Shown here piece by piece: positions 7,123-64,000 of a DNA stretch of 64,000 nt. Numbering within the stretch: position 1 is the stretch's first letter; each line of letters begins with the position of its first letter. The notes under the pieces were generated by a model that was not told the DNA's origin, did not search any database, and saw only the letters and a list, made by a program, of their open reading frames with translations. Position numbers and translations under genes: made by a program. This DNA comes from Amoebophrya sp. A120 (Eukaryota > Protista > Dinoflagellata): NCBI GenBank assembly GCA_905178155.1, contig CAJINV010000002.1:3474757-3538756 (forward strand), given 5' to 3'.

Positions 7123-9706
7123 ATGAGCGCTCCTGCCGAAGAGCCGAAAGTCCAGGAACAGCAGCAGGCCACTGTGGCCCCCGCTGAGGAGAAGAAGGCT
7201 GAGGAGCAGAAGGTCGCTGCCGGCACGGAAGAAAAGCCGAAACAAGCCGAAGAAACCACCGCTAGTACAACTACCGCGGCTGCCGCTCCCGCTACCGAGG
7301 AAAAAGTAGAACAAACCACCACTTCCAACAAGCGCCCCGCCGAAGATAGTGTTGTGGCTGCCGAAGAGAAAAAGGAAGAGAAAAAGGATGGCGAACAAGA
7401 GCAGAAACCTGCGGCCGAGGAACAAACTGCTGCGGCTAGTGCCCCGCCGGCGAAGAAACAGAAGTTGAACAACAATAAGTTAAATGTCGCGACTGACCAG
7501 GGAATTTTGATCACGGCGGCGAACTCCCACGCGTTGAAGCCGGCCATTCACGATTGCTTGAACATTTTGAAGCGCGCTTTTCCGGACACTGCTACAGCAG
7601 TATGCATTGCAAAAGTATCGTACTCGTATAAATGCATTACAAATTTCCTCAGCATGAGAAATAAAATTTGTAATGCGGATTTACCGTAACAAAAGGATTT
7701 AATGCATGATTGCAATACGAGTGCGATGCTTTTGCACAGGATAAGCAGGTGCCGACGACAAGGCTGGAAAAAGATTCGAACTCTGCAACGATCACAAGCT
7801 GCCGTTCGGTATTGATGAGAATGTTCCTTTTGCATTTGCTGTTGGTTGTTTTCGCATGACAGTCACAGTAATTCTTCCACTTCTTCCTCCTGAACCTGAT
7901 GTCAACATCGCATGCCAATCTGTTCATGCTCACTTGCACTACTTACAAAACCGCACAACAAATTCTGCTAGGTATCGGCTTCGTGAAGTGCAATCAGTCT
8001 CCTACCGCTCCGTTAACCGCGTCCGCCTGCTGCAGCCAGATGTTCGAGAAATTCCAAAACAAGCAGGAAAACTCCCACCATATTTTCCGGCTACTGCCGT
8101 GCGACTTCCTCTGTAAGCCGGACATTGAGGAGTTCAAAAAGCTCGCGGAGAAACACATCAAACCCTTGTTCCCGAAAACGGAAAAAGCGGAAGACAAAAA
8201 GTTGACGTGGGCGCTGAACTTCAAAACCCGGGCGGTGGTATGGAATGTGAAATAAATTTTTCGGAGATTGTTTGCAATTTTTACGCACAGGACGGGGCGC
8301 TTTTTCGATTTAATAAGTGCCTGCATGCGAAAGACCATTCGAGGACAATTATGCTGCGGCTTTTCCAAGGATGTCGAACGGCCAGCTTTTGCAGCCTTCA
8401 CGCAAACTAGCAAGTTTTGGCTCAGACAATCAAAAAAATCGCAGCACCATGGTGATGCATGATTTTTCTGATTGAAAATAACATGCGCTTGCTCTATGTG
8501 ACGCAACAATGGTGCAATTTTTTTCGATTATGAATCTATTTGACCCGCCGTCCTAGTACCTCAAATTGTCTCCGAACAATTTCGACTTTCCCACTCCATA
8601 CTTGAAGAAGATCAACAAGGACCTGATCCTGCAAGTGATCGACCAGTGGTATCAAATGCAAAAATGTCTGGGTCTGGGAGATTCCGAGATTTGTCATGCA
8701 GTTTTTCCAAGCTCCCCCACGTCTGGAATGCAGGGCCTAGCATCACAGGTTCTGCAGCTCCTTGGTGATGCGTATTCTGCATGAGAAATGCTCTCTCAGC
8801 ATGGCCAGAAGTGGGCACCTTTTGCACGTTATGCATCACAGATCTTTGTAGGATCCGAAACACATATCACAAGTTCGGATCCTTCCAGACCCAGACATTT
8901 TTGCGTTTGATAAATGGACCGATGGGTACAAGGTTTCCCTGGACAACCCCGAAGTGTGCATCCAGATCGAGGTGAACCCGGTTTTCATCGGGTTGGCTTT
9001 GATTGACAACCACCAGTGGGGGAAGTTTATCAAGTACAACGTGCAATCGGTGTTGAATCCGGCGCAGGCCCTATGGGGAGGAAAAAGTTTGTTACAGTCA
9101 CTATCTATCTTGGCGGTTCTGCATTACAAATTTTTTGCATCATCACAGCTTTTGCTTGTATTGCTGGAACACCAAGGGAAATCCCGTAGGAAGTTTGGCT
9201 GTGGGGCATTTTTATGCATGACAGTCAGGCATTTTTTGTATTGCAACAATGCACATGAATGATCGTGGTGAGCTTTTTTCTTTTGATAGGCCGCGAAGGA
9301 AGCGGAAAAGCACCGGAGCCGGGAGAAGGCGAACCAGGCGAAAAAAGCGGAGAAGGCTGCTGTATGAACTGCAAAAGTATCGCACTCTCATAAATGCATT
9401 ACGCATTCTCTCAGCATGAGAAATAAAATTTGTAATGCGGATTTACGTTGAGAAAAAAATTCGTAATGCATGATTGCAATAGGAGTGCGATACTTTTGCA
9501 CAGGATATGCCGCTGCGAGTAGTACCACGGGAGTCGAGAAGAAGGCGGAGGAGAAGAAGGAGGAAGCTGCGGCTGCTTGTGCCACTGCAGAGACGAAGAC
9601 CGAAGCTCCTGCGCCCGCCGTTGCCGAGAAGGAAGCCGCTAAGGCCGTTGTTGAGGGAGAACAAGCGAAGACCGCCACGGAGAAGGCGGTGGAGGCTGGA
9701 GCGTAA
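7123..9706 (+). CDS. THUMP-domain protein (Tan1/THUMPD1-like tRNA modification adaptor), 7 exons
   Basis: Spliced: GILITAANS...RLLPCDFLCKPDIEEFKKLA...TWALNFKTRA...NKDLILQVIDQWTDGYKVSLDNPEVCIQIEV. Confidence 0.8.
7601..7743. mobile_element. Introner, family C (TGCAAAAGTATCGTACT TIR)
   Basis: TAT..ATA, TSD AGCAG/AGCAG. Confidence 0.9.
7810..7974. mobile_element. Degenerate introner
   Basis: TCGG repeat on both sides; removal gives KLPFGFVKC. Confidence 0.6.
8239..8600. mobile_element. Degenerate introner
   Basis: TATGGAATGTGAAA / TTTCCCACTCCATA TIR; TSD eroded. Confidence 0.6.
8650..8912. mobile_element. Introner, family A (TGCAAAAATGTCTGGGTCTGGA TIR)
   Basis: TSD AGTGG/AATGG. Confidence 0.9.
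9072..9288. mobile_element. Introner, minor family
   Basis: TAT..ATA, TSD GGCCC/GGCCG. Confidence 0.75.
9363..9507. mobile_element. Introner, family C
   Basis: TSD TGCTG/TGCCG. Confidence 0.9.
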
Positions 9707-10454
9707 AGGCAGAATCGTCGACATGAGAAGGCTATATGTAGTGTTGAATGTGGAAAAATAAAGGGAAACATGAAACTTCCGTTTGCGAATGACACCACTA
9801 CACTTACGAAACCTCCGCGTTTGTCTCTTCGCGACTCGATGACATCGCTTCTCTGGTGTGAGGAGTATGAAGACGAGCTCCTCTATCCAGGTCACAGATC
9901 AGAACCATCACTAACTTTGCTTTTGAACAGCTCAACCTCGAATAAAAGTTAATATCACGCAAACAAGTTCTCGAAAAATTCCATCGCCAAGTAACAGGGA
10001 AAGCATTCTAGGTTCTAGAAATGATGACTTTTCTTTGATGTGATCAAGCCGCTGGGTGGTGGTCACCTCTATCTGTGTTCGAGTTGTATGCAGTACTTGC
10101 TTCTATCCCCCGAGTGTAGTCTCAACTTCTACAGCCTCTGTTTGTTACAATCGGTATGGTTTTTTATTTCGTGTGCTGCCAAAGTTGTGGAGAGAAACGC
10201 GGCTCTGGAAGTTTCACAGGAGCTTTTTTTAGCGCTACTAAGTCAGAAGACAGAAACGAAGCGAGAGCCGATATTCATTGCGCAAAGAAAACGACAGGAA
10301 CAGAAAAAGATTCTCCAAAGGAAAATATCCTTTCCCGTGTCGCAGACGACAGGAGTGCTGCAAAATTAATTGCAATTCAAATCGACCTTTGGTACCTACT
10401 ATAGTTGATTGGAAATTATAAAGTCGCGATAGAACAGAAAAAATCACGAACAAC

Positions 10455-13422
10455 ATGCCCTCCGTCCTGATTGTCTGTACTTCCGCGGCCGAGTTCGGGC
10501 CGGAAAAGTCCCCGACGGTATGAACTGCAAAAGTATCTTAATCGTAGGAGAAGAAATACAAATTAGCTCAGGAAGAGAAATGGAATTTCTCATGCTGATT
10601 TAGGTTGAAAAAGAAATCTGTCTTGCATGACTGCGATTAGTACGAGTGCGATACTTTTGCACAGTATAGACGGGCGTCTGGATTGAAGAACTCGCTTCTC
10701 CGTATTACGCTTTCTTCTATCAAATGCAAATATGTCTCGGTCTGGAAGAGTCCGAACTTGTGATGCTGCATTTGGATTCCAAAAAAATTTGTATTGCATG
10801 AGCAGCAAAGGGAATGCAATTTTTGCTACGCGGAGAGGACATTTGTCATGCGGAATAGGCATCAAGAAGCCCTGATAATATATGTGATGCTAGGGCATGC
10901 ATCACAGACATCATGGCTAATGCAAAACGTGCATGACAAACTCCCCAAATCTTCCAGACCCAGACATAGTTGCAATGCATATCTTAGACGCTGGGTTCAA
11001 TGTGACCGTCGCGAGTCTGGCGGGAGGCGAAATCCCCGTCGACGCCGCTTCCCGCAGTGAGGGGTTTTACACGGATGCGTATCAAAGTGAAAAAAGCCTC
11101 CACCCCATAGCGGAAACGGAAGATGCGCGAATTTGTGATGCTGTATTTGAGTACACAAATCGACTTGTATTGCTAGAAGGCCAAGAGACGAAGCTGCGGC
11201 CTAAATTGCAGGTAATCTGTCATGCTGTTTCCCGCTTCCAGTTGCCTCCTGTCATCCTGGAGCTGCAAGGCTGTCCCACGCTAGACAGCACTACAGTCCG
11301 CACCTTTTGCCTTCTAGCATCACAAAGCTGACTTGTGACCACAAATCTGCATCACAGATTTCCGTTTTGATATGGGGAGGGGGCATTTTTCATTGTAATA
11401 ATGCGGCGAAGAAATTTGATGCGGACGAAACGGCGACGGGTGTGCTCAAGACTAGCAAGAACTTGGCGGACGTGGTAATATTGTATGTTTGAAGTAGAGC
11501 TTGCGATGCAGTTCTGCATGAGAAGTAGAGATATGCGAATGATGCATGTAGCTTGTACCCATGACAAATAAAGCACAGCAGTTTCTCATGTATGTAACGC
11601 ATGCCAAAATAAAATTTCTATCAGGCCGGCGACGAATTTGATGCCGTGTACCTCCCCGGCGGGCATGGTTGCTGCACGGATTTTGTTAGGCATTGCAAAA
11701 GCTGTGTTGCACGAGAATGCCAACGAAGAAATTGCGATTTGTTTGAAGTAGATGTAGCCCTGTCACTATGAACACGACCCGAAGAATAAAGATCTGTCAT
11801 GCAGTATTCCAAGATAGAGTTTGCGCGTTTAAACTTGCGACGCTTTTGCTTTTGCTCACCATAGCTCTTGCGCACGACGGTTTGAAGGCTTGCGTCGAGA
11901 AAATGTACGCTTCGGGAAAGGTGGTTTCTGCTTGCTGCCACGGCCCGGTCGGACTCGCGCAGTGCTGCAAGCCAGACGGTACTTTTTTCGTTTCTCGCGG
12001 AGGCAGCTCTTCTTGCAAGGAATGATACTAAGCTTGTCTCCAATCTAAAACAAAAACTAGCATTAGTCCGTGCAGTTTTTCATTACATGTTTTTGCGCGA
12101 ATCCACCCCAACATATACCCCCCTTCAGGTACCCCCTTGGTGAAGGATTTGAAAGTGTGCGCCTTCATATCCTGAGGAAAAACGTACCCACACCAGAGTT
12201 GTAGTGCAGATTTGCCAAGACAGGAAGACTTGTAATGCGCATCCCCATAAGAGCCATTTCCAATCGTGTTTTGGAATTTGTGATGCTGTGAACAGGATGA
12301 GCCGATGAATCTGTGATGCGGCTGCTCTTGCTAACCTGCACTACACTGCAGAGTGCAACTTCTCATGCTTGACTCACAAAACTCCTAGGTTTGTCTTGCA
12401 AAATCCCCATCCTGACTCTGGTGTGGGTACGTTTTTACTCAGGATACTTCAAGGACACCGAGGAAGCCGCTGTTGGGCACACGGAGAAGGTTGCGTGGCT
12501 GCTGGAGGCCAAGATGAAAGAGCTCGTATCAAAAGCAAATATGTCTGGGTCGGGAAGGTTGCAACTTGTGATGCTGTTTTTCGATTCTAGAAAAATCTGT
12601 AGTATTGCATGACCAGCAAGAGGAGTCCAGTTCGTGCTGCGCAAAAAGGGCGTTTCTCATGCGGGATAGGCATCAGAGAGCTATCTAAAAATCTGTAATG
12701 CTAGGTCATGCATTCGCATTGCAGGCATCATGTGTAATGCAATATGTGCGTGACAATCTAAATCTTCCAGATCCAGACCCAGACATATTTGCATTTGATA
12801 GCTCGGGTGCAAGTACGAATCCGCTGACGATTGGAACTCCGTATCCTGTGCAAAAGTATCGTACTCGTATTGTAATCATGCATTACAAATCTTTTTCTTA
12901 AGGTTAAGGTAAATTCGCAAAAAAAAAATAGTAGCTGGAGATTTCAACTTGCATCGTTATAGAAGCTTGTGTCTGTTCTGTGTTGCCTTAAAAGTTTGCA
13001 TCTGCGCCATGCATCTATTGAAGATATGTTTTTTTGTTGCAGATAGACGACCTTGACTATGGGGCGTGGGCACGAATTCTGGGAGAGTGAAGATTTGCGT
13101 TGCAGATAGATGACCGTGGGGACGCTCTCGGAGATCCGGGATCCGGAGCCGGGTGGGCGAGCGACGCGGACAGGCCAACCAGGCCAACTTCTCATCCACC
13201 CGGCCGGGTGGATGGGAAGTTGGCCTGCAACTACTATTTTTTTTTTGTTACCCCGCTCTTACAAATTTTATTTCTCATGCTGAGAAAATTGCATTTATAC
13301 GAATACGATACTTTTGCAGTTCATACTCCGCGGCGGTGTGCGATGGGCAGTTAATCACGGGGCAAAACCCGCAGTCCTCCGAGGCGGTGGCCAAGTTGAT
13401 CGTCGAGGCATTGAAGAAGTAA
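10455..13422 (+). CDS. DJ-1/PfpI (Hsp31/glyoxalase III-like) protein, 10 exons
   Basis: Spliced: TGVWIEELASPYYAF.DAG...FDAVYLPGGHG...VSACCHGP...LITGQNPQSS. Confidence 0.92.
10519..10668. mobile_element. Introner, family C
   Basis: TSD GACGG/GACGG. Confidence 0.9.
10718..10981. mobile_element. Introner, family A
   Basis: TSD TCTTC/TCTTA. Confidence 0.9.
11080..11400. mobile_element. Introner, family D (CCCCATA/TATGGGG subterminal TIR)
   Basis: TSD ATGCG/ATGCG. Confidence 0.85.
11475..11624 (+). other. Canonical GT-AG intron (150 bp)
   Basis: GTAATA...ATCAG; joins LADV|AGDEFDAVY. Confidence 0.8.
11686..11863. mobile_element. Degenerate family C-like introner
   Basis: GCATTGCAAAAGC / GCTTTTGC..CATA; junction ambiguous. 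Confidence 0.55.
11979..12128 (+). other. Canonical GT-AG intron (150 bp)
   Basis: GTACTT...TTCAG; joins KPDG|TPLVKD. Confidence 0.8.
12168..12446. mobile_element. Introner, family B (TATCCTGAGTAAAAACGTACCCACACCAGAG TIR)
   Basis: TSD CTTCA/CTTCA. Confidence 0.92.
12527..12800. mobile_element. Introner, family A
   Basis: TSD GCTCG/GCTCG. Confidence 0.92.
12842..13325. mobile_element. Introner, family C, with nested insertion
   Basis: TSD CTCCG/CTCCG. Confidence 0.88.
12918..13247. mobile_element. Nested MITE inside introner
   Basis: TIR CAAAAAAAAAATAGTAG / CTACTATTTTTTTTTTG. Confidence 0.7.
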
Positions 13423-15098: not shown

Positions 15099-18000
15099 AT
15101 GAGGTCGGTTCGCGTATTCGCCACCATAATTACCGCTGCCCATGGCGCGGATATTGGGGCGCTTATTTCCGGGCCGACGCAAGCTCGCAAAACAATCGCC
15201 GCGGAAGAAGCGAAACAAAGGGCCGAGCAAGATGCGAGAGCTGCCCAACTAGGTCCGATCCCAGTTGCGCCAGCTACCCAAGGGCTGCTTCCGGCCCCGC
15301 CTGTGGTGCAAGAGGTCCAGGAGGCTGAACAAGTAGATCCGGGGGCGCCCCAAGATCATGCCGTCGTGGCCAACGGGCCCAGGCAGGTGACGGAAAACAA
15401 GAACCGGAAGTGGTCCCCGATTGCCGCCTTTACAAAGTGGGCGGGTTGGATATCAAAAGGAAAAATGCCCCCTCCCCATATCGAAACGAAGTTTCTGATG
15501 CTCGATTTCCGTACACGAATCGGATGTGTCTTGCAGTAGAGCACTACTGCAGACAAATGCCAAACCTGAGCTGAGGGGTTTTGACTAAGGCGCCTAACAT
15601 GGCAAATGTCTATGCTGTAAGCCGAGCAGCATCACAAACCGCCTGTGTAATGCGGCGCAGTCTCTGGGCTTGCCCTCTTGCAAGAGAGACAGGATTTGTG
15701 GACAAATTTTCAGAGGGGTGCGCTTTCAATATGGGGAGAAGTGATTTTTTCTCACAATATTGGACCTGGGACAAAGTGCCGGACGACAAAATGCAAGACC
15801 GGTTGGATAAGTTGCAGTTCTACGTGGACAACATGATGGCGCTCCGCTACGCCAGCGTGGAACCCGAAGCCGAGCGGCAGAAACTGATCCAGCGGCGGAA
15901 ATTGCTGCATGAAAACGAGAAAGTGTATTTTATGTTCGAGTCCGCGGCGGATCAAAATGTCATGCTGTGGACCAGCGAGCAGATTCTGCACGTGCAAATC
16001 CACGAAGGTTGGTCCTACTACATTCGCGGACTGAAGTTTATCGGCACAGAGCAGCCGAAGACCGAGTTCCGGGCCATCCGGTGGGCGAACATTCTCGCGT
16101 GGAGCTTCAAGCCTGTCGCGAAACACCTGTCGTGGTCGACCACTTTCACGTTGCAAACGGAACGGGACGAAATTGATCTCTTATGCACTGCAAAAATGTC
16201 TGGGTCTGGGAACTTGTGATGCTGAGTTGTGAATAGTATAATGCTCTGTAATGCTCAGCCGAGCATGAGAAATATTTGCGCGGCTCCGTGTTGCGTTTTC
16301 CGCATGGTAAACGCGTTTTTGCATGACACGCAAAAGGGCCTCGTCTTGGACACGCATCACAAACTCTTCAGTCATGCCAGACAAGCATGACAAGCCTTGC
16401 ATTTTTCCAGACCCAGACATATTTGCAATCCATATCTCTCCGTGTCGTACAACAGCATCGAGGGGGGGGCCGCGTACGACCTGTTTTACTTCCTCTCTTG
16501 GCGCATCACCTCGGTGGCCTCGCTAAACTTGAAGGCGCCGCGAAAGTATGCGGAAGAGTTCGCGCAGTTTCAAGAAAACAACCCCTGCGATGAGGGCAGC
16601 CCTGAGATGGAGAAGTTCAAGAAAGGTGGGGAAAACCAGGGGATTCTTTCCAAGACGCAGCTGCTTCCCTGGAAAACCCGGCGTGCGATCGTGAACCCGG
16701 TTTGCGTTCAAAACATTTTGTTGCGCGAGAAGGTTTTGATGACGGTATCAAATGCAAATATGTATGGGTCTGGAAACTTGTGATGCTGGGTGGCGTATCA
16801 TGAGGAGGCCACAAGTGCTGGCTCAGCATGACAAGTTTCGGAGCTTCTAGGTCGTGTTGCCTATTCTGCATGACAAACTGCGTTTCTGCATGACAGAAAA
16901 ACGAGGCTCTTGGGTAACGTGCATGACAGATTTAAGAGTCATGCCAGACAAGCATGACAAGCATGCATTCTTCCACGACCCAGACACATTTGCAATGCAT
17001 AGATGGACGAGAATGTGGATTTGGCATTGTCCGCGACCGGCGGGGCGATTGACAAAGACATTCACATGCGGGATTCGATCGTCTTTACCCAGTACTATCC
17101 TGAGTAAAAACGTACTCACACCATAGTTGTCATGCAACTCTGCATGCTTAAAATGTTTCTCATGCGGAGCCCCATGAGAAGCATTTTCTAATGCGGTTTT
17201 GAAATTTGTCATGCTCCATTAATCAGCATGAGATACTGGATCTGTAATGCTGCTAAACTAGCTCAAACAGCACTACACTACGCGTCGGAATTGGTCATGC
17301 CAAACAACCAAAGCTGTGTGATTTGTCTAGCAGATTTCCCATGTTGACTCTGGTGTGGGTACGTTTTTACTCAGGATAAGTACCGCATCATCGTCATTGA
17401 AGTGCCAAACGTCGTTGGCAACTTCCTTGGGACCTCGAAGGCGCTGTATTCTTCCTACACTTACCATTCCATCCGCGCGTGGACCCTGTATCTGCCGAAG
17501 AGTTATCAACTGTAAAAATGTCTGGGTCTGGAAGATTGCAACTTGTCATGCTAAATCCGAACCATGCAAAAATCTGCGTTGCATGAGTGCCAAAAGCTGT
17601 CCACTTTCGACCAAGTTGGGAGGGAGTTTCTCATGCAGGATAGGCATGAAAGTGAAAGAGACCTGACAGACTCTGTCATACTAGGTCCCGCATTCCAGAC
17701 CTCAAGGGCCATGGAAAACCTGCATGACAAGTTCACACTCTTCCAGACCCAGACATTTTTGCATTTCATAACAGTTTTTTCGACATGAAAGGTTCGGTGA
17801 TCAAGCTTTACACCAAAGTTATGCAATGCAAAACAAAGTATCGTACTAGTATGCATTGCATTACAAGTTAGCCCAGCATTACAAATTAAATTTGTAATGC
17901 TGATTTCCCTTGAGAAAAAGATTTGTAATGCATAAATGCAATTACTACGAGTGCGATACTTTTTCAGAGCATAAAAGTCCGCGAGGAGCAATATGTCGAT

Positions 18001-21000
18001 GGCGGGCTCGCGTGGGGGCCGATGGCGATGAATTTGAACGTGAATGGGCAGGTTGACGGCGCCGGTGCAACCTGGCTGTACAACCGGATTTGGGGAGAGG
18101 GCACTGATCCGACGGTGATCACGAATTTACTTGCCTGGCGGGTCCTGGGGTTGCGCGAGGCGCCGCCTTTGGACCCAGCATTGGAAAATCTCCGGGGCGC
18201 GAAGAGTGAAATCGACAACGTATCCTATGTAAAAACGTCCCCATCACATAGTTGTCACTCTCTCTGCGTGGTAAAAATGTAAATGTTTCTCATGCGGAGC
18301 CCCATGAGAAGCATTCTTTGCTAGTCGTGTTTTGGAATTTGTGACGCTCGAAGCAGCATGATATGCTAGATCTGTGATGCTACTTGAAATAGCTAAACAG
18401 GATTACATACACGAGGCCAAACTTGTCATGCGCAGCAACCAAAGCTAGTAGATTTGTCTAGCAGGTTTCCCATCTTGACTTATGAGAATGAGGTGGGGAC
18501 GTTTTTACAAACGATACACCGAAGACGGAAATCCGGTGAACTGGTTTGACTGGATTCTGCAGTCGCGCAACAACGTGGAGCTCCACATCGGAAAAGACAA
18601 CGTTCCAATTATCCTGAGCAAAAACGTCCCCACCCCAGAGTTGTCATGCAAATCTGCATGCCGAAAAAGTTTCTCATGCGAAGCCCCATAAGAAGCTTCT
18701 TCTATTCGTGTTTTGGGATTTGTGATTCTAGAAATAGCATGATATGCTAGATCTGTGCTGCTGCTGAACTAGCTAAACAGGATTACACTACGAGGACGAA
18801 CTTGGTATGCGAAACAACCAAAGTTGGCTGATTTGTCTAGCAGATTTCCCATCTTGACTCTGCTATGGGGACGCTTTTACTCAGGATACCAATCTACAAT
18901 GCGTTGACGGACAAGTACCTCGTGCTGGGCGACGGCTTCGAAACCGTCGAGCTGATCTTCGAGATGTCCATTGGCCTGTGCGTGTTCACGAACCGCCGTA
19001 TCGTTTTGATTCGCAACAAAGGAATCGGCTTTAAACTCGGAGCAGGCCTGGAGTTCCTCGGGGGTAAGCGCTACGTGACGCTGACGTACGACGCGATTCA
19101 GAGTTTCTATGACCGTGCACAAGAACTCCCCCTCGTTCTCATTTCTCATGCAAAATCCCAAACCCAAGTGTTTCCCTTGTATCTCTATTATGCATGACGA
19201 ACCCGGAAGCCCAAGCAGTACTACACTAGCCTCATGAATTTGTCGTGCACAGACTCCATGTGTGTTGGGGTTTGTATTGCTGTTCATGCAATACAAATGA
19301 GGGGAGCTGGGAGTTGTGCACTCTCATAGTTTCAAGGTGAAAGATATGACAACCGTGGAGCAGAAACTGCAGGGGATCGCGAAGTCCTTCGGGAGTACTT
19401 TTTTGCAGCTGAACACCGACATCCCGGATGTTTTTGTTCCGATGCCGGTTGTATCAAATGCAAAAATATCTACTGGGTCTGGAAACTTGTGATGCTGAAA
19501 TTGAATGATAGACGTACTGCAAAACGCAGCGATGCGTGACAAATTGTTTGGCTGCCATGTGTTGTTACGTATTCCGCATGGCATCAAACTGCGTTTTTGC
19601 ATGACAGGTACTAAGAGGGCCTTTTCGTGCCTATGCAACACAGACTCTCGAGTCATGCCAGGCAAGCATGACAAACTAGCACTCTACTTCCGGACCCAGA
19701 CATTTTTCCAATGCATAGGTTGCCGCGGCTACTGCGGACGGTGCGGCGCGCGCCGGGAGGGCTGGGGGTAGTGATGGCGCAGAAGCTGCGGTGATCGCGG
19801 CCGCCATCAATGTCGCATTCATATCAACTGCAAAAATGTCTGGGTCTGGAAGGTTGGAACTTGTGACGCTAACTTTGGACTCTAAAAAAATCTGTATTTT
19901 TGCATGACCAGCAAGAGGAGTCTAGTTTGTGCCACGCGGGGAAGGCGTTTGTCATGCGGAGTAGGCATCGAGAAGCCCGCTAAAAATCTGTGATGCTAGG
20001 ACGTGCATTAGAGACGTCCTGGGTCATGCAGAACATGCATGACAAGTCTCAGAATCTTCCAGACCCAGACATTTCTGCGTTTGATAACTCACGACCACCT
20101 ACAACTATGCTCAAAAACGGGCGCAGGTAGACGGCGGCGTGGAGTCGCATTGCGACACCTTCTATCAAATGCAAATATCGATCTGGGTCTGGCAGCTTGT
20201 GATGCAGGTCAGTGAATAATTAAAGTGAACAACTGTAATGCGCAGCCAAGCATGACAAGTTTATTTTTCGTGCTTCTGTGCTGCGCATTCTGCATGAGAA
20301 ACTGCGTTTCTTTTTGCATCATGACAGGCGAGAGAGGCTGTTCCAACGATGGCCCCACGCAATCCAGAGCGCAGAGTCAACATGCCAACCTACTACAATC
20401 TTCCAGCCGAATGACAAGTTGTCTTGCAATCTTCCAGATGACGCAGATCGATATTTGCAGTTGATACCTTGTGGATCTGTCAAGCCTTTATGCAGTGGGG
20501 TAAAAGCCCGGGTTTAAACAGTATCCGGATCCAGTTTGCCGGCCAGCAAGCGCTTACCAAATGTAAAAATGTCTGGGTCTGGAAGATTGCCAGGTTTGTC
20601 ATGCACATTTTGCATGACTCCTGATGTCTGTGATGCATGCGTTAGCATCACGGATTTTGTGAGGGCTTTGTGATGCCTATATTACCGCATGACAAATGCT
20701 CTTTCCGTGTAGCAAAACTTGGACTCTCTTTGTCCCTGCTGCTCATGCAATACAGATATTTTTAGAATCCAAAATCAGCATGACAAGTTGGATTCTTTCA
20801 GACCCAGACACTTTTACAGTTGATAGCGCTGTTTAAATTGCAAGCCTACCTCACTTTTCGCCTCACCCGGATCGGACACGCAGGCGGGAACGTGCTGCCT
20901 GTATGAAATGCAAAAGCATCGTACTCGTAGTAATTGCATTTTTGCATTAGAAATGTCTTTTTCAAAGTAAATCAGCATTACAAATTTAATTTGTAATGCT

Positions 21001-45454: not shown

Positions 45455-46335
45455 AAAAAAGCCCGGGTAGGAAAAATGCATTTTGCGTTTTTTCCTACCC
45501 GGGGTTTTTATTTTCAAAACCCCGGGTAGGAAATATTTATCCGCTGCTCTGCACGTCTGTGAGGGTGATAACAGCTGATAAATATTTCCTACCCGGGGTT
45601 TTGAAAATAAAAACCCCGGGTAGGAAAAAAATCAAAACTCATATTTCCTACCCGGGCTTTTTATTTTCAAAACCTCGTATAGGCCCTCCGAAATCTGGGC
45701 GGCGCGGCAGCGCCGCGAATTTTTTTTTTTTTGGATCGCGGAGAGCTATGTGAGGTTTTGAAAACCAAAACCTCGTATAGCCCCCTCGAAATTCGGGCGG
45801 CGCGGCAGCGCCGCGAAGATTTTTTTTTTTGGGTTCGCGGAGGGCTATGTGAGGTTTTGAAAGCCAAAACCTCGTATAGCCTCCTCGAAATTTGGGCGGC
45901 GCGGCAGCGCCGCGGAGAATTTTTTTTGGTTCGCGGATAGCTATGCGAGGTTTTGAAAATCAAAACCTCGTATAGCCTTCTCGAAATTTGGGCGGCGTAG
46001 CAGCGCCACGAAAAGTATATTTCCTACCCGGGCCTTTTTTTTTCAAAACCTCGTATAGCCTCTCCGAAATCTGGGCGGCATATTTTTTTTTTGGTTCCCG
46101 GATGGCTATGTGAGGTTTTGAAAACTAAAACCTCGCATAGCCCCCTCTAAATTTGGGCGGCGCGGCAGCGTCGTGAAGAATTTTTTTTGGTTCGCGGAGG
46201 GCTATGCGAGGTTTTGGAAGCCAAAACCTTGGATAGCCCCCTCAAAATTTGGGCGGCGTGGCAGCGCCGCGAAGGAGTTTTTTTATTTTGGTTCGCGGAG
46301 CGCTATGTCAGGTTCCGAAAACCAAAACCCCACGT
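45455..46335. repeat. Array of about 100-bp hairpin-forming repeats with CCCGGGTAGGAAA/TTTCCTACCCGGG palindromes
   Basis: Unit AAAACCTCGTATAGCC..GGGCGGCGCGGCAGCGCCGCG..GCTATGTGAGGTTTT repeated about 6 times. Confidence 0.85.
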
Positions 46336-49300: not shown

Positions 49301-49526
49301 CCAGCAAAGTTGTCCTTATACTGGAAGTTGTTGCACCACTACTCATCTGTGAAACATAAACGTAGTGCTATAATTCACTTTTTTTTATAAACCCATTGTT
49401 ATTCCAGGCGCTTACTAGCAACTTGGCAAGTTTCTTCATCTACTCGTCAAAAATTTTTACCCCCACAGTCACTATTTTTTTTTCTTCGATATTTCGATCT
49501 GCAATTGTATCTGTCTCTGTACCAAC

Positions 49527-52500: not shown

Positions 52501-55114
52501 TTGCCGAGCGTCTGCAGCAACACAATTGTCCGGCGGTAGGGTTTGAATATGATAACAGGAACAGGCTTCAGTCCCTGAAGTTTGTCTTCCGACCGAATTG
52601 GCAAGAAGAAGTGGAGCGAGGCCAGTTGAAGATTTTCTACCGAGAGAGGCAGCAAGACCGAATCACCCTTGACGAAGCGGTCGAGGTGTCTATCGATGAC
52701 GCTTTGTGGACCTTCCTCGAGAGCAGCGCTTTTGGTGATGCACCAGATGAAAGGTTTGACAAGTTTAACGACTGCCTCGCGCACACGTATCGAGGTGCGC
52801 GGGTTTCCTACCTTGGTAGCCTGCAGCTGCTGGACCTAACACTGACCAGCCAACGGCACAACCTTTCCGAGCTCCTCGGGACTCGCACGAGCCTCGGCAA
52901 CCGGCTGCGGGAGGCGGTGCTCAGTAGCCCCAGTTACAAAAGGGCGATGGAAGTTCAGGCACAGTGGATCAGGTTCCTAACGGAATGGGAGGTGGTTTGG
53001 CGCCAGGAGGTTTGGACATGGCACTTCCAAGTGATGAAGGATTTTGTGGGGTTGGAAGCTGATGAACCGAACTACCAGATGCTGGACACTTTGAAACGAG
53101 AGAGCAATCTGCGCGCTGCTGTTTTTAAAGCGTGGGAAAGTGTCTCTTTTGCGGTTCGTGTGGCCCACCTGCGGGAAGATAAGCCGGACGCCTGTCTCGT
53201 CGGTCTCGCGGGCAGCACCAAGGCCGCCCCCCCTGCGGTCTCCTGCGGGCTGCCTGTCTCCCGTCGCCTCCCAGGCGGCATATCTGGTGCCAACGAGCAC
53301 CCGCGAAAAAAGTTGGAGGCGATTATGACCAATGAGATCCTTGTCTTCGAGCACTTGGACCCGATCAAGAGCATCGAGGAAATGGTGAGCGAGGGAAAAG
53401 TGGGGGCCACAATGCTTTCATCGGAACGGCTGCTGCTGCTTAGCTTTGATATTCCCAAAGCTGCAGCCCCATCCGCCAAGTGTAGCGCTAGTTCTGATGA
53501 CAAGCATCTTCCTTCGCCAGACGGCGCCATCGGCAAACATGATTCGCCAGAAGGGCGGGAAGCATTCTCGTCCGGGCTACAACTTGGGGCACTACTCGAA
53601 GACGAGCAAAAAAACGATGAAGCGCGCGCGAAGGCAACGGGTGTGAATTTCACAGTTGACTATCAAATCGACAGTCCCGCCTTCATGGCCAATCTTCTGG
53701 ACTTCTTTATCAAATAAAAAAAAACCTCCGTTTCGCGGTACACGACATATTGTGATCATCATGCAAAGAAATTTATGCAACTACACGGGATGTTAAACCC
53801 CTGCTGGAACTGCAAAATAAACTATCTTCCTACTCAATATGGAAGTTGTAGACACCAGATTTGTAGCTGTGGCGTCTTCTCAAAAGAAAACGCACTGCGC
53901 ATGGCAACAACAAATAAATTTTTCATCTTTATTGGCATGTGGCGCTGCAGAAGGCTCCTTCTACACAAGATTTATTTGCCTACCGTGCATATGATAATTA
54001 AATAAACCCCCAAGCAAAGTCCGTCGTGTGTAATGAAATCGACCACTTTTTCCGGACGATACAGATACTTTTGAATCTTGGCTTTTCGAAGGAGGTCGGG
54101 AAAAAGAAGAGCCCATCACCACGTTCCGTCCCGAAAGCCGAGTGGGAAAAATTGAAAAAGCAGTTGTTGGACGACTTGACAGACGCGCAGGTGAAAGAAA
54201 AGTTGGAGGAGCATGACGAGAAGCGGGTTTTGCACCGCAGAATCATGATGGACATCTTATTCCAGGAACCCGGAGCAGATGCATTGGAATTCCTGAAAAA
54301 TCGCACGAAACAATTCGACAAGGGAGTCCCGAAGCACAAAAAACCTCTTGCTGCGTTTGTGGGAGGAGGTGGTCAAGGAACAATCCCTGAAGCTTCCGTC
54401 AAGGATATCCTGAGTAAAAACGTACCCACACCAGAGTCAGGATGGGGATTTTGCAACACAAACCCAGGAGTTTTGTGAGTCGCGCATGACAAGTTGCACT
54501 CTGCAGTGTAGTGCAGGTTAGCAAGTGCAGCCGCATCACAGATTCGTCTGCTCATCCTGTTCACAGCATCACAAATTCCAAAACACGACTGGAAATGGCT
54601 CCCATGGGGATGCGCATTACAAGTCTTCCTGTCTTTGCAAATCTGCATTACAACTCTGGTGTGGGTACGTTTTTACTCAGGATAAAGGAAGGATCGGGTC
54701 GTGCGGGCCAGGACGTCGACGACCTGAAGAAGATATGAAATGCAAAAGCATCGTGGTACTCGTATAAATGCATTACAAATTTTGTCAGCATGAGAAATGA
54801 AATTTGTGATGCGGATTTACCTTAAGAAAAAGATTTGTAATGCATGACCGCAATACGAGCGCGATACTCTTGCACAGGATAGAAGAAGTCCCCTTCAGGT
54901 CAAGGCCGCCGACGTGGTGGAGCTGCACGGAGCCCTTCGGCTAGCCGAAGGAAAAGCCGAAGTCCCTCACCGCACAGCAGGAAGAGCCGAAGTCCCTCAC
55001 CGCATATCGTCCGCACAGTGGGAAAAAATAAAAGGGGCAAGAAACCTAGTAGTAAAAAAAAGTAATGCGACAAGATCTACTACTAAATTTAAGGGTAAGG
55101 AACATCTGACCTAG
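49527..55114 (+). CDS. Hypothetical protein with N-terminal hydrophobic segment; multi-exon (extension beyond 53717 tentative)
   Basis: Frame open after removing elements and one GT-AG intron; removing 53708-54067 gives LLDFLNLGFSKE. Confidence 0.6.
49808..50026. mobile_element. Introner, family I (TGTTTCACTGTAA TIR)
   Basis: TSD TCGCT/TCGCT. Confidence 0.88.
50705..50959. mobile_element. Introner, family A
   Basis: TSD GTGTG/GTGTG. Confidence 0.92.
51005..51440. mobile_element. Introner, family A, with nested insertion
   Basis: TSD CGAGC/CGAGC; TIR of about 30 bp. Confidence 0.92.
51148..51326 (+). mobile_element. Nested insertion with (CTA)n tail, possible non-LTR/SINE fragment
   Basis: Flanked by TGCAT/TGCAT; absent from sister copy 16746-17001. 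Confidence 0.6.
51696..51944 (+). other. Canonical GT-AG intron
   Basis: GTAAGT...ATAAG restores the frame. Confidence 0.7.
52135..52310. mobile_element. Degenerate introner
   Basis: TAT..ATA, TSD GAGAT/GCGAC, in-frame join. Confidence 0.6.
53708..54067. mobile_element. Tentative highly degenerate introner
   Basis: TATCAAAT..GATA; removal links two ORFs in frame. Confidence 0.4.
54406..54684. mobile_element. Introner, family B (inverted relative to 12168 and 59403)
   Basis: TSD AAGGA/AAGGA. Confidence 0.92.
54734..54881. mobile_element. Introner, family C
   Basis: TSD GAAGA/GAAGA. Confidence 0.92.
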
Positions 55115-57687: not shown

Positions 57688-60600
57688 ATGTTCGGTGGTG
57701 GTGATCCCTTGCTTGCCGCGTTGTTTGCAAAAATCGAACAAGCGCCCGTTGCTGCGTCGCCTGCTGCGAAACCGAAAGAGGACAACAATCTGCCTCCCAC
57801 ACGAGGAGCATGTGACGGCGCGGACGAAACTGGGCACGGGAACGACCTTCAACATGAAGAAGCCGTTGCTGGGTCGAAGCGTCCTGGCCACGGCGAGGCG
57901 TCAGCGGGTGTGGGGAATGATCTCGTGGAAGTAGACGAGGAGGAATCAAAGTTTTCTAGTACGACCGTCGGAAGTTCGAGCGAGACAGAGGGGCAAGAGG
58001 TAGAGCTAGAGGATCACCAAATAGTGCGAGAACAGTCAACAAGGCAACCACCGGCCGCAAACAAGCCAACCGCCCTTCCTGTCGTAGAAGATGAACCACC
58101 TCCGCGGCCACGACCTCGTCTCGAAAAAGTATCCGAAAGTACTGGTAGAACCGTCTACGAGCCGCTAAGAAACAACCGCGCCAGCGTGAAGACCACTAAT
58201 AGTGCCAGTGCCTCTTCTACAACTACCTCTGCGAACATAAATCCATCCAGCCTAAACATCCCGCCAATCAAGCTAAAACTACAGGATTTGATCGAGTTTT
58301 TGCAACAGAAACCAAGTGTATCTCCGGGTATATGAGAGTCCGCAACCCCCCCTCCCCCTCCTTTGTCATGCAAAATCCGAAACCCAGTCGCTGCCCTGTG
58401 GCACTTTTCGCGTGACAAATTCCGGAAGCCCAAAGGGTACTACATGAGGCGCATATTTTTGTCATGCATCGGTTCCATGTGTGCTGGTGTCAGTGTCTGT
58501 ATTGCTGCTCATGCCATACAAATGAGGGGGAGGGGCGGGAGTTGTGCACTCTCATAGGGCAGCTCGTCTTGTCAGAAAAGCGCGTCGTCTCCACCAGCTT
58601 CGTCGTCCCTCTCCGAATCGGAGCGATTAGTGTTCGTCGCCCGACTATGAAATGCAAAAGCATCGACATCGTACTAGTACAAATCGCATGACAAATTTCC
58701 TCAGCATGAGAAAGAAAATTTCTAATGCGGATCTAACCTGAGAAAGAAATTTGTAATGCTTGAATGCGATTAGTACGAGTACGATACTTTTGCACAGGAT
58801 ACCGGCTTTGTGAGGAGGCCGTCCCGCAGTTCCAGCATCTGTGGCAGATTTTGTCACGGCTGTTATGCATTGCAAATATGTCTGGGTCTGCATTTGTGAT
58901 GCAGGACTTCAAGGACAACAAGATCTGTAATGCATGAACACGATTTGCCAGTTTTTTTGGCATGCTGGATGGCAGTTTGTAATGCTAAACACGAAAGAAT
59001 CTGCAAGGAGCCGAGTGAAATTTCTCATGGTGTCATGCCGTACAGGCAGCCAGTTTGCAATGCAAGTATTAGCAACACAAGTTTCCAGACCCAGACAGAT
59101 TTGCGTTTGATAACTGTTGTCGTTGAACGACCCGCAAAACGAGCAGGAAAATTTGACGGGTTTGAAGAAGAAAATGATAGAAGTTTTAAGAGAATTCAAT
59201 ACCAGCGGGAATGTGGAGATCGACGTGGCGGGAGTGTTGGAGAAATTGGTGAAAGAGCACGAGTTGGAAACAGGTGGAAGTACACGTAGTGGTGGTAACG
59301 CTAACGCTGCAAATAAAACACCGGCGACAACAACCACTTTCAGAATTCCGGAAATGCCGGTTCTTGGGTTGGGTTTGTGGAAGATGACAGAACAGGAAAC
59401 TCTATCCTGAGTAAAAACGTACCCACACCAGAGTTGTAATGCAGATTTGCAAAGACAGGAAGACTTGTGATGCGCATCCCCATGAGAGCCATTTCCAATC
59501 GTGTTTTGGAATTTGTGATGCTGTGAACAGGATGAGCAGACGAATCTGTGACGCGGCTGCACTTGCTAACCTGCACTACGCTGCAGAGTGCAACTTGTCA
59601 TGCGTGACTCACAAAACTCCTAGGTTTGTGTTGCAAAATCCCCATCCTGACTCTGGTGTGGGTACGTTTTTACTCAGGAAAACCTCCTGTATCGTCTTCC
59701 TCCAGTGCGTCGACATCCACGGGAACTACTCGGAAAAGAACAGCAGATATCCTGTTTAAAAACGTCCCCACCCCATAGTTGTCATGTAAATCTGCATGCT
59801 GACCTGAGAATCGAATGTTTATGTTCCGCATGCGGAGCCCCATGAGAAGCGTTTTCTAGTCGTGTTTCGGAATTTGTCATGCTCGAATCAGCATGACAGA
59901 CTAGATCTGTGATGCTCTTGAACTAACTGAGCAGGATTACACTACAAGGCCCAACTTGTCATGCGCAACAGCCGAAGCTGTTTGATTTGTGTAGCAGATT
60001 GCCTATCTTGACTATGGGAAGGGGACGTTTTTACTCAGGATAGCAGAACTCAAATCCCTATTGAAACACGCGATTCTCAACTGCACTTGCCGGCGTTTCG
60101 ACACGGCAGCGACCTACGACGATTCCGAAAATGTTTTAGCGGAGGTGCTACATGAGGTTTTGTCATGCAGCACCAGCACAGGAAATTTGTCCCGCTCGGA
60201 TTTCTTCATCCAGACCAAGCTCCCCGATCACGGGTGGAAAAACCCGCAGAAACACATCGACTATCAAATGCAAAAGTGTCTGGGTCTGGAAGGATGTAAC
60301 TTGTGATGCGCATTTCAGAACACACAAAAATCTCTGATGCATAGGCAGCAAAAGCTGCTCACTTTCTGTCACAAAAATGAGGGACTTGTCATGCGGATTC
60401 AGCATTGCGGAAGCTTCTCCTCGAGACCTGTGATACTAGAGCTTCCACGCCAGACCTTCATTTTGTGTCATGCAGAAACAGCATGACTCTTCCAGACCCA
60501 GACACTTTTACATTTCATATCGACGAAGCGTGTGCAAAATTTCCGGGTGGTTACATCGACTTGTATCTGATTCACCACCCAATCACGAAAAGAAGAGACG

Positions 60601-63600
60601 CGGTGGAGGAGGAGGAGGCGTCGAATACGAAAAATAAGAAACCGAAGAACAAGGCGCTCTACTCATTATCCAGTGCAAAAGTATCGTACTCGTAGTAATT
60701 GCAGTCATGCATTACAAATCTCGTTCTCAAGGCAAATCAGCATGACAAATTCCATTTGTCATGCTGAGCGAATTTGTATTGCAATTCATACTAGGACGAT
60801 GCTTTTGCAATGCATACTCATCGAACCAAGACGAGTTTCATCTCACGGCCGTATGCTGTGCAAAAGTATCGTACTCGTACTAATTGTATTTATGCATTAC
60901 AAATCTAGTTCCCAAGGCAAATCCGCATTAAAAATTCAATTTGTAATGCTGAGCCAATTTGTATTGCAATTTATACTAGTACGTTACTTTTGCAATTCAT
61001 AGGCCGAGGAGTTCTCGGATCACTTGCGAAGAGTTTGGAAAGTTCTCAACGATATCAAATGCAAAAATGTCTGGGTCTGGAAGGATCCGAATTTGTGATG
61101 CGAATTCCACAACACGCACAAATCTTTCATGCATAGGCAGCAAAAGGTTCCCACTTTCTGTCACCAAACAGGGGGATTTGCCATGCGGATTAAGCATTGC
61201 GGAACGTTCTCGAAATCTGTGATGCTAGGGCTTCCATGACAGACCCTCTAAGTCATGCAAAAACACCATGACAAAAATCTGCATTCTTCCAGACCCAGAC
61301 ATTTTTGCAATCCATAAACGACAACGTTTTGCAGAAGAAGATCAAATACATCGGAGTGTGCAACTTTTCCGAGAACGACTTGAAAATTCTAGCCGGAATG
61401 ACGTCCATGATTAGTCCGTCTATGTCGAAGGAGCTGTCCGACAAGCGATCAAACGTCGATGTTCTTGATGTTGAACCACCGCGAGACGATGAAGTCTACA
61501 AACCCGCCCCAGCAATACGCTTCCCTGACGTCGTGCAAGGGAAGTTTTCTCTGTTTCATCCCTGGAACGCCTACGCAGATCCGGAGGGGGAGTATCAGTC
61601 GGTGCTGGGGAGATATGTGGAAAGAAGGGACGACGAGAAAGAATCAGAATGTGAAGCGCGACAAAGTTACAGTACCAGCAGTTCTTTATCTCCAGGAGTT
61701 GTTTTCGACGGCGTTTCGCTAGTCCAAGAAGTGAATCACGAGGGTCTGTTCAGCGTGTTTAACTGCGGGAAATTGGTCGAGAAGATAGTGGAAGCTGTGT
61801 CCGCTTGTAGTACAACGACAGATGTCATGCAGCATTTACTGAAGTGGAGAAGCGACTGGCGAGGGTACTGCGGCTTGGTTCGGTGCCGGACGAAGGAGCA
61901 CTTGAATGACGTTTTTTCTCCTACTGCTCAAGGTCAAGGGGGACAGCATGACAAATCTCGATCACCTCGTCCGTCAAGCATGACAAATTACACGACCCTC
62001 TATCGCATCTTCGACAGCCTGCACCGGTTGATCACGCTGGAGACCTTCAACTTCAGTCCGGTAAACCCACTAGCTTCTCATGCGGAAATCGCTTTGCAAA
62101 GCAGTTCGACGTCATCCCTCTACCTTGAATCCCGCCGGAACTTTCTCCTGACCGAACTGTTCGCCCTTGAGGAAAAAACGCCCTTTTTCGACGAGGAGCT
62201 GGCGATGCAGCAGTTTCAATCGATCATGAACAGTAGCAAAGGCTTCCCTGATTTGATCGAAAAACTGAAGCAGCAATTGAAGAAGAACGGCGCCACGGGG
62301 TTGCTCTCGACAAAAGCCTTTGTCGCGGCGATCCGAAATTTCGTTCAGGAGGCGAAAAGAAGAAACTTTACCAACCGCGTGCAGATCTACGAGAAAGTAG
62401 AGCAGCTGTTGGTGGAGCTGTACGAAACGGAGAGGAAGTCCAGCTTTGAGAAGTTGAAAGAGTATTTGAAAGAAAGAAACGAACGGAAGGAGAAGGAGGA
62501 GAAAGATTTGAAAAAATCCTATAACTACAGCTGGGACAGCGCGCTGCGGGGGAACAGCTGGGTGTTCGATGGGTTCAGTGAGGAGAAAGGTAGTAAGGCT
62601 GCTGGTGGTGGTACGTCTGCAGGTAATTATGGCGGTAGCTCAGCATCCTCGTCTAGTTCCCCCGACGCCGTTGTGATCGACGCGGAGGATTTACCAAAGT
62701 ATTTCAAGGACGACGGCGAAAATAACGGAAGATCGGAATCTTACTTCAAACTCGCGTGGTCTAGCCCGAAAGAGCAGAAAAAAACGTGGGAGCAAATTAA
62801 CAAATCCTTGGACAAAAATCACTTCGCAATCATCGACAACTTCATGACGTTGCCCACTGCCACCAAAATCAAGCAGGAGGTGTTTGACTTGAATTTCACG
62901 CCCTCGGAAATTTGGGTCGGCAGGGATGGGGGGATCGGTGCGCACGTGCACAAGCTATGCAATACAAATTTCCTGTACATGTACAAAATGCATGACAAAT
63001 TTCGCTAATTCGGAGTGTCGAACTTGTCATGCTGACTAGGAACGAGAGAGAGTTTTGTCATGCAGAGACTGCATTTGTGCGTGTACGGGAAATTTACTGT
63101 GCATACAAGCCCGAGGTTCGGGGGGATGACATCATCTGGATCTGCGGCCAGCACAAGACGCACTGGAAGGTATGCATTGCAAAAGTATCGTACAACTAGT
63201 AGTGATTGCATTACAAATTTGCTTAGCATTACAAACGAAATTTGTAATGCGGTTTCACCTTCGGAAGGAGATTTGTCATGCATAAGAGCAAGAAGTACTA
63301 CGAGTGCGATACTTTTGCAGAGCATAGAAGGAGAGATTGTACGACTCCGCCGGGGTGCAACCGGAAAGCCATGGAATCGGAAAACAAGCCGGGTTGCAGG
63401 TGTGTAAGTTACCGGAGGAGAATGAGGATCCGATTCCGAATCTTCTTGTAGCTGGGTCTTCAAATGCCGAGAAGAAGAAAAACCCGAATAAGAAACCGCA
63501 CCAATCCGAGTTTCCCACTTTATCCAGCACGTTGAATACTTTGGATAGCAAAATCTACGAGAATATCAAATGCGTCGGCGAACTCGTGGAGCGCTCTGAC

Positions 63601-64000
63601 TGCATGATCGGGCGGTACTCGGGGCAGAAAAAGGCAAGATTTCAGAAGCACGTGGACAACACGCAGGAAGATGGGCGTAGACTCGCTTGCGTCGTGTACT
63701 TAAACGACCCGGAGTGTTGGAACGTGGAGGAAGACGGTGGGGACTTGAAACTGCATCTTCCACAGACAATTATCAAATGTAAAAATGTCTGGGTCTGGAA
63801 GAATGCATGTTTGTCATGCTTGTCTGGCATGACTCTCAAATCTGTCATGCACTTGACCCACGAGCCCCATTCTTCTGTGATGCAGAAACGCAGTTTGTCA
63901 TGCAGAATAGGCAACACCTAGGACCTCAGAAACTTGTCATGCTGAGCCAGCATTTGTAGCCTCATCATGAGACGCCACCCAGCATCACAAGTTTCCAGAC
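57688..64000 (+). CDS. Aldo-keto reductase fused to EGLN/PHD-type 2OG-Fe(II) prolyl hydroxylase; 3' end beyond window
   Basis: AKR: MPVLGLGLWK, FDTAATY, FIQTKL, YIDLYLIHHP, IKYIGVCNF; PHD: VRGDDIIW, CMIGRY..FQKHVDN..DGRRLACVVYLN..W....GGDLKL. Confidence 0.85.
58331..58556. mobile_element. Introner, family E
   Basis: TSD GGGTA/GGGCA. Confidence 0.87.
58646..58801. mobile_element. Introner, family C
   Basis: TSD CCGAC/CCGGC. Confidence 0.88.
58864..59112. mobile_element. Introner, family A
   Basis: TSD GCTGT/ACTGT. Confidence 0.88.
59403..59681. mobile_element. Introner, family B (end mutated ATA to AAA)
   Basis: TSD AACTC/ACCTC. Confidence 0.88.
59748..60042. mobile_element. Introner, family B
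   Basis: TSD GCAGA/GCAGA. Confidence 0.92.
60262..60519. mobile_element. Introner, family A (inverse of 50705-50959)
   Basis: TSD TCGAC/TCGAC. Confidence 0.92.
60667..60816. mobile_element. Introner, family C
   Basis: TSD CTCAT/CTCAT. Confidence 0.92.
60852..61001. mobile_element. Introner, family C
   Basis: TSD GGCCG/GGCCG. Confidence 0.92.
61053..61316. mobile_element. Introner, family A
   Basis: TSD AACGA/AACGA. Confidence 0.92.
62956..63105. mobile_element. Introner, family J (AAATTTCC.GTACA TIR)
   Basis: TSD CAAGC/CAAGC; removal gives HKPEVRGDDIIW. Confidence 0.88.
63171..63326. mobile_element. Introner, family C
   Basis: TSD GAAGG/GAAGG. Confidence 0.92.
63771..64000. mobile_element. 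Introner, family A, truncated by window end (inverse of 16746-17001)
   Basis: Left TIR TATCAAATGTAAAAATGTCTGGGTCTGGAA; right TIR begins at the window edge. Confidence 0.88.

Follow-up and report, generated by a model that had tools for sequence, protein, structure and literature searches.

A helically phased internal motif in introner-like elements of Amoebophrya sp. A120, a putative binding site for a common mobilisation factor

In a 64-kb stretch of the genome of the dinoflagellate Amoebophrya sp. A120 (contig CAJINV010000002.1, positions 3,474,757 to 3,538,756; here called the window), short non-coding transposon-like elements, probably the introner elements of this organism, share an internal motif, TGTVATGC, whose copies are spaced in phase with the DNA helix. 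Based on its enrichment, conservation, and geometry, we consider the motif to be, with moderate confidence, a binding site on double-stranded DNA for one shared mobilisation factor, which could be a transposase or an accessory DNA-bending partner. The elements themselves are already known; the phased spacing grammar of their internal sites is new here.

RESULTS

The motif is concentrated in the elements of the window

Elements were located in the window by a motif-blind search for inverted ends with flanking repeats, followed by hand curation, which yielded 59 elements covering 23% of the sequence. Exact matches to TGTVATGC on both strands numbered 180, compared with 7.03 ± 2.92 in dinucleotide shuffles (largest, 17; n = 100), none of which reached the observed count. 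Most of these strict matches (168 of 180) fell inside the 59 elements (14,589 bp, 11.5 per kb), and 12 fell in the 49,411 bp outside them (0.24 per kb), such that the elements were 47-fold denser. Among the individual forms, 56 of 61 copies of TTGTCATGC, 32 of 33 of TTGTGATGC, all 33 of TTGTAATGC, and 26 of 28 of TCTCATGC lay inside elements, and TGTTATGC occurred once in the window; six other repeat regions (7,679 bp) contained 1 strict match. The strict motif was present in 55 of the 59 elements and the broader T[GC]TV[AT]TGC in 58. Elements carry 2 to 6 sites each, with an extended form of approximately AAYT-TGTV[AT]TGC. A preliminary description of the window had claimed that different families are studded with named forms of this motif and that it is rare outside them, both of which these counts bear out; the lack of enrichment over background that it had set against its own idea was not observed.

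Apart from decayed copies, the elements run from TAT to ATA and are flanked by a 5-bp target duplication without preference for particular target bases. All 31 distinct consensus ends begin with TAT, vary at positions 4 to 10, and have A at each of positions 11 to 15 in 24 to 29 of the 31 cases. With inverted ends, a target duplication, no coding content, multiple copies, and an empty site, the elements have the traits of non-autonomous transposons with terminal inverted repeats (TIRs), i.e., miniature inverted-repeat transposable elements. They resemble the introner elements of A120, which, in the available parts of PMC7789003 and PMC12130899, have TAT followed by seven variable bases and at least three A residues, short direct repeats, a non-canonical intron structure, and many families; the family lengths available from PMC12130899 (~106, 148, 209, 220, 234, 252-261, 278, 305, and 320 bp) match our consensus lengths. 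From this anatomy and these lengths, we infer that the window elements are A120 introner elements.

Families with dissimilar interiors share ends and motif

A metagenome scan with the end of group A, one of the groups into which elements were sorted by their ends, gave 128 stretches, of which 127 loci, from a related assembly, were used (L001-L127; 768,559 bp). Since the loci were picked by the group A end, this group is over-sampled; viral contigs gave no match to the same end. Detection in this larger set was also motif-blind, and the 5-bp target duplication belonged to the detection rule. It found 602 distinct elements, of which the window contributed 48; 200 kb of shuffled DNA yielded none. 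Subfamilies of at least three copies, 23 in all, took in 522 of the 602 elements. By their ends, these subfamilies sorted into 11 groups, and the motif was present in all 11.

When the motif was masked, the interiors of subfamilies within groups A, B, D, and H aligned strongly (z = 9 to 63). Across groups, most comparisons gave z < 4 (25 shuffles each), the exceptions being E-H (10 to 11), E-D (5 to 7), and B-D2 (5 to 6). Given that the ends are shared, the groups are likely to have a remote common ancestry. The families had been described as otherwise unrelated, which holds for most interiors, as they cannot be aligned, and fails for the TAT and A-run ends and the 5-bp duplication, which are shared.

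The motif is constrained, most strongly on internal branches

Identity to consensus was 0.948 in motif columns, 0.839 in other non-CpG interior columns, and 0.918 in the terminal 28 bp. Motif columns stood above other interior columns in all 20 subfamilies with at least six copies (Wilcoxon P = 1.9e-6), and this excess was confined to the 8-mer, dropping at the motif edges. Within subfamilies, motif divergence was 0.33 of that of trinucleotide-matched neighbours, so the second outcome named against the idea, a motif no more conserved than its neighbours, was not found either. At the V position, A, C, and G exchanged freely, and only 26 of 505 changes went to T. In the flanks, AAYT appears weakly upstream, and 13 to 14 bp downstream lies a partial inverted half-site.

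On parsimony trees, the ratio of motif to other substitutions was 0.18 on internal versus 0.44 on terminal branches (Fisher P = 1e-17), and in near-identical copy pairs it was 0.61 (19/697 versus 97/2,153). Since changes found in several copies have passed through transposition, we infer that an extra filter on the motif acts at copying.

Sites follow a spacing grammar with a helical period

First sites lay at ~37 or 47 bp from an element end, mostly within 36 to 39 or 45 to 50 bp; in the window, 74 of 102 ends had their first site at 36 to 41 or 45 to 50 bp, and none had it closer than 34 bp. Of the 11 end-groups, 10 had a same-direction pair 30 to 33 bp apart (the null averaged 1.7 groups and peaked at 8 in 20,000 draws), and both first sites lay at 36 to 39 or 45 to 49 bp in 9 of the 11 (null mean, 0.5). 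In one example (41870..41941, + strand), TGTCATGC appears three times in the same direction at 41870, 41901, and 41934, i.e., at steps of 31 and 33 bp with unlike spacers; in another (59875..59915), + sites at 59875 and 59908 bracket a - site at 59891, with centres 14 and 19 bp apart and 33 bp in total.

With a fitted 3-bp offset between orientations, a free scan over periods gave its best fit at 10.45 bp; the mean cosine was 0.51 (125 unique group-distance pairs), and the null never exceeded 0.22 in 400. The phasing persisted without the dominant spacings (cosine 0.39, 87 pairs; null maximum, 0.24) and without group A (cosine 0.38, 60 pairs), the bootstrap placed the period at 10.30 to 10.56 bp, and the window alone gave 10.4 bp (151 pairs). 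The cosine exceeded 0.2 in ten groups, and 22 weaker, previously unused sites gave a period of 10.35 bp (77 pairs, no null). Phased A-tracts alone gave no signal (71 pairs, cosine 0.04). Length changes of at least 2 bp were rarer inside the 30- to 33-bp pairs (3.7 versus 5.8 per 1,000) and more frequent, at 7.2 per 1,000, from an element end to its first site. Site layouts differ between subfamilies yet stay in phase.

The geometry favours a reader of double-stranded DNA

Both orientations to the inferred gene strand were seen in all 23 subfamilies, and the strand inference called 48 of 48 window elements +. An orientation bias at an uncorrected P of <0.05 appeared in 2 of the 23; a pooled bias (240 versus 196, P = 0.04) was discarded, as it hinges on an arbitrary consensus direction. 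The V letters of facing sites agreed at chance level (94 versus 88.4, 136 versus 134.5, and 438 versus 448), and across 30 positions the left and right ends of individual copies did not covary (largest excess, 0.056), so that selection for end-to-end pairing within copies found no support. Because of the 10.4-bp phasing, the use of both orientations, the lack of covariation, and a motif density that is independent of splice register (see below), the evidence favours a protein reading double-stranded DNA over an RNA splicing mark.

In the preliminary description, the motif was seen as a cis code to which a single common factor binds, either a transposase or a protein marking the introns for removal. 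The enrichment and the 0.33 divergence ratio support the code, albeit among families that are not wholly unrelated. Between the two candidate factors, a DNA-level mobilisation factor is favoured by the phasing, the orientations, the absent covariation, and the constraint on internal branches.

Elements are skipped in RNA-like contigs and are mobile

Contigs of runs X3 and X6 were taken as RNA, which is their presumed status. Among the 15 joints listed (53 further joints are unlisted), 11 skip exactly the element length plus 5; the others comprise one skip of a decayed element, two GT-AG introns, and one long repeat joint. Taking nine skips out of 10457-13420 leaves a stop-free frame of 226 codons. 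A GT-AG register was possible in 18 of 403 elements (16.0 expected), and motif density was 1.73 per 100 bp in those 18 and 1.72 in the other 385. A gap-free piece from run X1 (51418-54431) spans two elements, with its joint table swamped by repeat cross-matches. The raw RNA runs X10 and X12, with 6 and 20 placed reads, and run X9, with 22 contigs, contributed no evidence.

The elements are mobile: the corresponding position in locus L085 of the related assembly lacks element 60667-60816 and has just one copy of its 5-bp target, and so represents the one empty site. Two elements in 60852..61316 occupy the same places in L085; by eye, 4 of their 8 interior substitutions lie in motif cores, and one deletion in the orthologous pair covers a variant site. 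The right end at 61303-61316 differs from L085 at 5 of its last 14 bases, with interiors ~97% identical; a conversion between ends of different copies is possible. Decay of the target duplication was tried as a clock and rejected as weak (Spearman 0.15), and low scores may reflect misplaced ends.

Layout of the window

Letters below denote end-groups. One + strand gene (7601..9507) holds four elements with 8 strict motifs, at 7601-7743 (C), 8650-8912 (A), 9072-9288 (no group), and 9363-9507 (C). Another gene (10519..13325) holds seven, all skipped in RNA-like contigs, six of them by exactly length plus 5: 10519-10668 (C), 10718-10981 (A), 11080-11400 (D), a decayed copy at 11688-11864 whose ends are approximate, 12168-12446 (B), 12527-12800 (A), and 12842-13325 (C, with extra DNA).

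The largest set, 21 elements in one gene (15451..25050), contributes five of the RNA-contig joints listed. It comprises 15451-15759 (D), 16182-16434 and 16746-17001 (A), 17096-17378 (B), 17504-17770 (A), 17820-17973 (C), 18221-18516 and 18610-18888 (B), 19108-19328 (E), 19452-19717, 19822-20086, 20163-20466, and 20555-20825 (A), 20902-21051 (C), 21190-21496 and 21561-21825 (A), 22051-22351 (B), 22613-22883 (A), 23799-24180 (B-like), and 24360-24638 and 24784-25050 (B).

Eight elements of five end-groups lie in one gene at 39392..43994: 39392-39643 (H), 40704-40957 (A), 41011-41219 (F), 41828-42083 (A), 42337-42492 (C), 42581-42868 (G), 43268-43436 (C), and 43736-43994 (A). Next to it, 35663-38146 is an element-free open frame of 828 codons, to which the neighbouring paralogue (~39100-44400) that carries these eight elements is 34 to 69% identical in four blocks.

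Seven elements lie in 49808..54881, at 49808-50026 (F), 50705-50959 (A), 51005-51440 (A, with an insertion), 51635-51942 (decayed), 52136-52310 (decayed, without motif and with approximate ends), 54406-54684 (B), and 54734-54881 (C). Twelve lie in 58331..64000, at 58331-58556 (E), 58646-58801 (C), 58864-59112 (A), 59403-59681 and 59748-60042 (B), 60262-60519 (A), 60667-60816 and 60852-61001 (C), 61053-61316 (A), 62956-63105 (C-like), 63171-63326 (C), and 63771-64000 (A, cut by the window edge).

Three strict motifs at 61823-61985 lie within a long open frame, two of them in the same direction 32 bp apart, and are perhaps a relic element turned exon or a chance occurrence. Single or degenerate motifs also occur in GT-AG introns at 7750-7971, 11474-11623, and 42945-43126 (approximate positions, assigned by eye except for 11474-11623), perhaps old elements that gained canonical ends. 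Repeat classes without the motif comprise a tandem array with a unit of ~104 bp (1500-2000), a fold-back region of CAGCTGAAAAAA and TCGAGTTGAGA repeats (5530-6900), and a 96-bp inverted repeat plus tandem units (45440-46340).

Insertions in and between elements

Among gaps of <700 bp between neighbouring elements, 181 of 403 measure 40 to 89 bp and only 9 measure <30 bp, which may reflect a minimum exon size or insertion beside an existing element. No helical period was seen in 317 gaps between neighbouring insertions (R ≤ 0.05). In the window and loci L001-L127, interior insertions of 3 nt and 6 nt (203 and 62 distinct events) far outnumbered those of 2, 4, and 5 nt (41, 44, and 18), and 3-nt deletions in element interiors were rare (11). 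Of the 203 insertions of 3 nt, 140 follow the pattern XY-N-XY, in which two nucleotides are duplicated so that the copies flank a single new base (16% expected by chance). Since such insertions occur in non-coding DNA, they are possibly a repair footprint, and the process could feed the fast protein evolution reported for the lineage. At L023:4631-5602, L045:765-1461, and L054:10115-11690, short elements contain 0.4 to 1.3 kb of foreign DNA, apparently other mobile elements nested in introners.

DISCUSSION

The most probable role of the motif, as judged from sequence, is to bind a shared mobilisation factor on double-stranded DNA. Several protomers would bind one face of the helix through the phased sites and would bend or wrap the 110- to 320-bp element until its two ends meet. 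An integrase-type DDE enzyme would then cut after the terminal TA with a 5-bp stagger, and the element would be copied to new sites, its removal from RNA being a separate step. If the sites and a minimal TAT...AAA end suffice, as we propose, the remaining ends and interiors would drift, and one system would come to resemble many families. An ApiAP2-like reader of TGCATGCA and 6mA at VATB are candidate leads. Short DNA loops depend on helical phase, according to the available text of PMC3464196.

Several observations weigh against this reading. The spacing windows and the 3-bp offset between orientations were set after the data had been seen; the free period scan sidesteps the choice of windows. 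Phasing is absent overall from group B (cosine 0.01, 9 pairs), the distances of GCATBACA-reading sites from the ends misfit 10.4 bp (best, 9.1 bp), and element lengths are not periodic at ~10 bp (P = 0.39, 20 distinct consensus lengths). The motif ratio stays below 1 on terminal branches (0.44 to 0.61), and copies whose target duplications have decayed show no higher ratio (0.31, 0.31, and 0.33), which makes constraint after insertion possible; the terminal values may reflect unsampled active lineages or host selection. The orthologue comparison rests on two elements. No transposase or integrase family was recognised in 94 of the 219 open frames of at least 230 codons (the 90 longest plus 4 from the window), and no long coding element was found among long TIR pairs in the 0.83 Mb searched. 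The long TIR pairs of L023, L045, and L054 were rejected as the autonomous element, since they look like short elements with foreign DNA inside. The available text of PMC7789003 likewise reports that no transposase was found in A120 and argues against general mobilisation by transposases.

Constraint that persists after insertion is also what would be expected if a host protein that binds DNA or chromatin recognised the phased sites and flagged the intron for co-transcriptional removal, with or without a role in mobility; elements bearing the code would then spread because they are spliced and hence harmless. Every DNA-geometry result fits this account equally, the terminal-branch ratios and those of copies with decayed duplications agree with it, and the introns are non-canonical (a GT-AG register no more frequent than expected), with U1 snRNA not found in these genomes according to the available parts of PMC7789003. 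However, it requires a copying filter to explain the extra constraint on internal branches (0.18 versus 0.44), orthologous copies have lost sites, the decayed one-site element at ~11688-11864 is still skipped, and elements with and without a canonical register are equally dense in motifs. We therefore hold this account as tentative and rather unlikely. A combined version is a more doubtful proposition still. In it, the tens of thousands of introners of this parasite would form one system, identified by the phased internal code and not by the ends; one protein would wrap each element on the code, join the ends, and also, in a cell where no U1 snRNA was found, mark the non-canonical introns for removal, as a domesticated transpososome defining introns at the level of DNA.

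If the motif instead acted in RNA, its two orientations would pair as stems, or an RNA-binding protein would read them, and the splice junctions would be brought together. Consensus interiors do form more stable structures than their mononucleotide shuffles (z = -0.9 to -12.5), site-site pairing appears in the predicted fold of at least one strand for 21 of 23 consensus sequences, hairpins are proposed in the available text of PMC7789003, and sites are slightly more numerous on one strand with respect to the inferred transcript (791 versus 695). Yet neither facing sites nor ends covary, T is avoided at V though T-A would pair, both element orientations are used, and a 10.4-bp period would have no evident cause in single-stranded RNA, all of which makes a role in RNA quite improbable. 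Slimmer still is the chance that the word has no present function, having either survived from an ancestral ~32-bp repeat unit or been spread among copies by gene conversion. The likely common ancestry (shared ends and the weak E-H, E-D, and B-D2 matches) and the orthologous end differing at 5 of its last 14 bases, a hint of conversion, are in its favour, but conservation is limited to the 8-mer and falls in the spacers, most masked interiors are unalignable across groups, T is avoided at V, and layouts that differ between subfamilies keep their phase. The confined conservation, the trinucleotide-matched ratio, and the avoidance of T largely refute this reading.

Ginger transposons end in TGT...ACA. 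The elements studied here end in TAT...ATA and contain no coding frame, so membership in Ginger was rejected. They do resemble the integrase-like (Ginger-type) family 38 of A120, which could serve as a lead to the missing enzyme. In the available parts of PMC12130899, the family of 808 to 810 bp with integrase-like homology is annotated "5-bp TSD, TA/TA termini," where TSD stands for target site duplication.

The closest parallel in organisation is the Ac/Ds system (hAT) of maize, where Ds1 shares with Ac only the ends and a few transposase-binding hexamers, and non-autonomous elements with unlike interiors have common ends and several short internal sites (PMC3260210, available in part). The internal repeats of Ac/Ds are bound by transposase (same source); here, the repeats are present and constrained and are candidate binding sites. 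Membership in hAT was rejected because the duplication is 5 bp, not 8 bp, and the ends vary at positions 4 to 10 after TAT, with no fixed 11-bp repeat. Also unlike Ac/Ds, the sites extend throughout the element on a 10.4-bp lattice, the elements serve as introns as well, and no cognate transposase was found in the 94 of 219 frames examined. The internal eliminated sequences (IESs) of Paramecium, as described in the available text of PMC3464196, are likewise short inserts with TA ends that derive from transposons, lie in alveolate coding sequence, and show a helical-repeat signature. However, their lengths are periodic and they are removed from DNA, whereas here the internal sites are periodic, the lengths lack the ~10-bp periodicity of ciliate IESs, and removal is apparently from RNA.

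The A120 introner literature, so far as its text was available, covers ends, direct repeats (3 to 5 nt), and hairpins, and calls the families diverse or of unknown class (PMC7789003; PMC12130899). No description of an internal motif or its phasing was found in the available texts, figures apart, of PMC7789003, PMC12130899, PMC9860276, and PMC11282704, or by searching the motif strings in the supplement text of PMC7789003 and 12 of the 14 supplement files of PMC12130899. The available text of PMC7789003 leaves two questions open: how introners move when no transposase is known for them, and how splicing proceeds in the absence of GT-AG and U1. With its fixed geometry, such a short conserved word offers a bait for pull-downs and a search pattern for the autonomous element, and mutants with point or half-turn changes could separate mobility from splicing. 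The phased word would fold many "diverse" introner families into one system.

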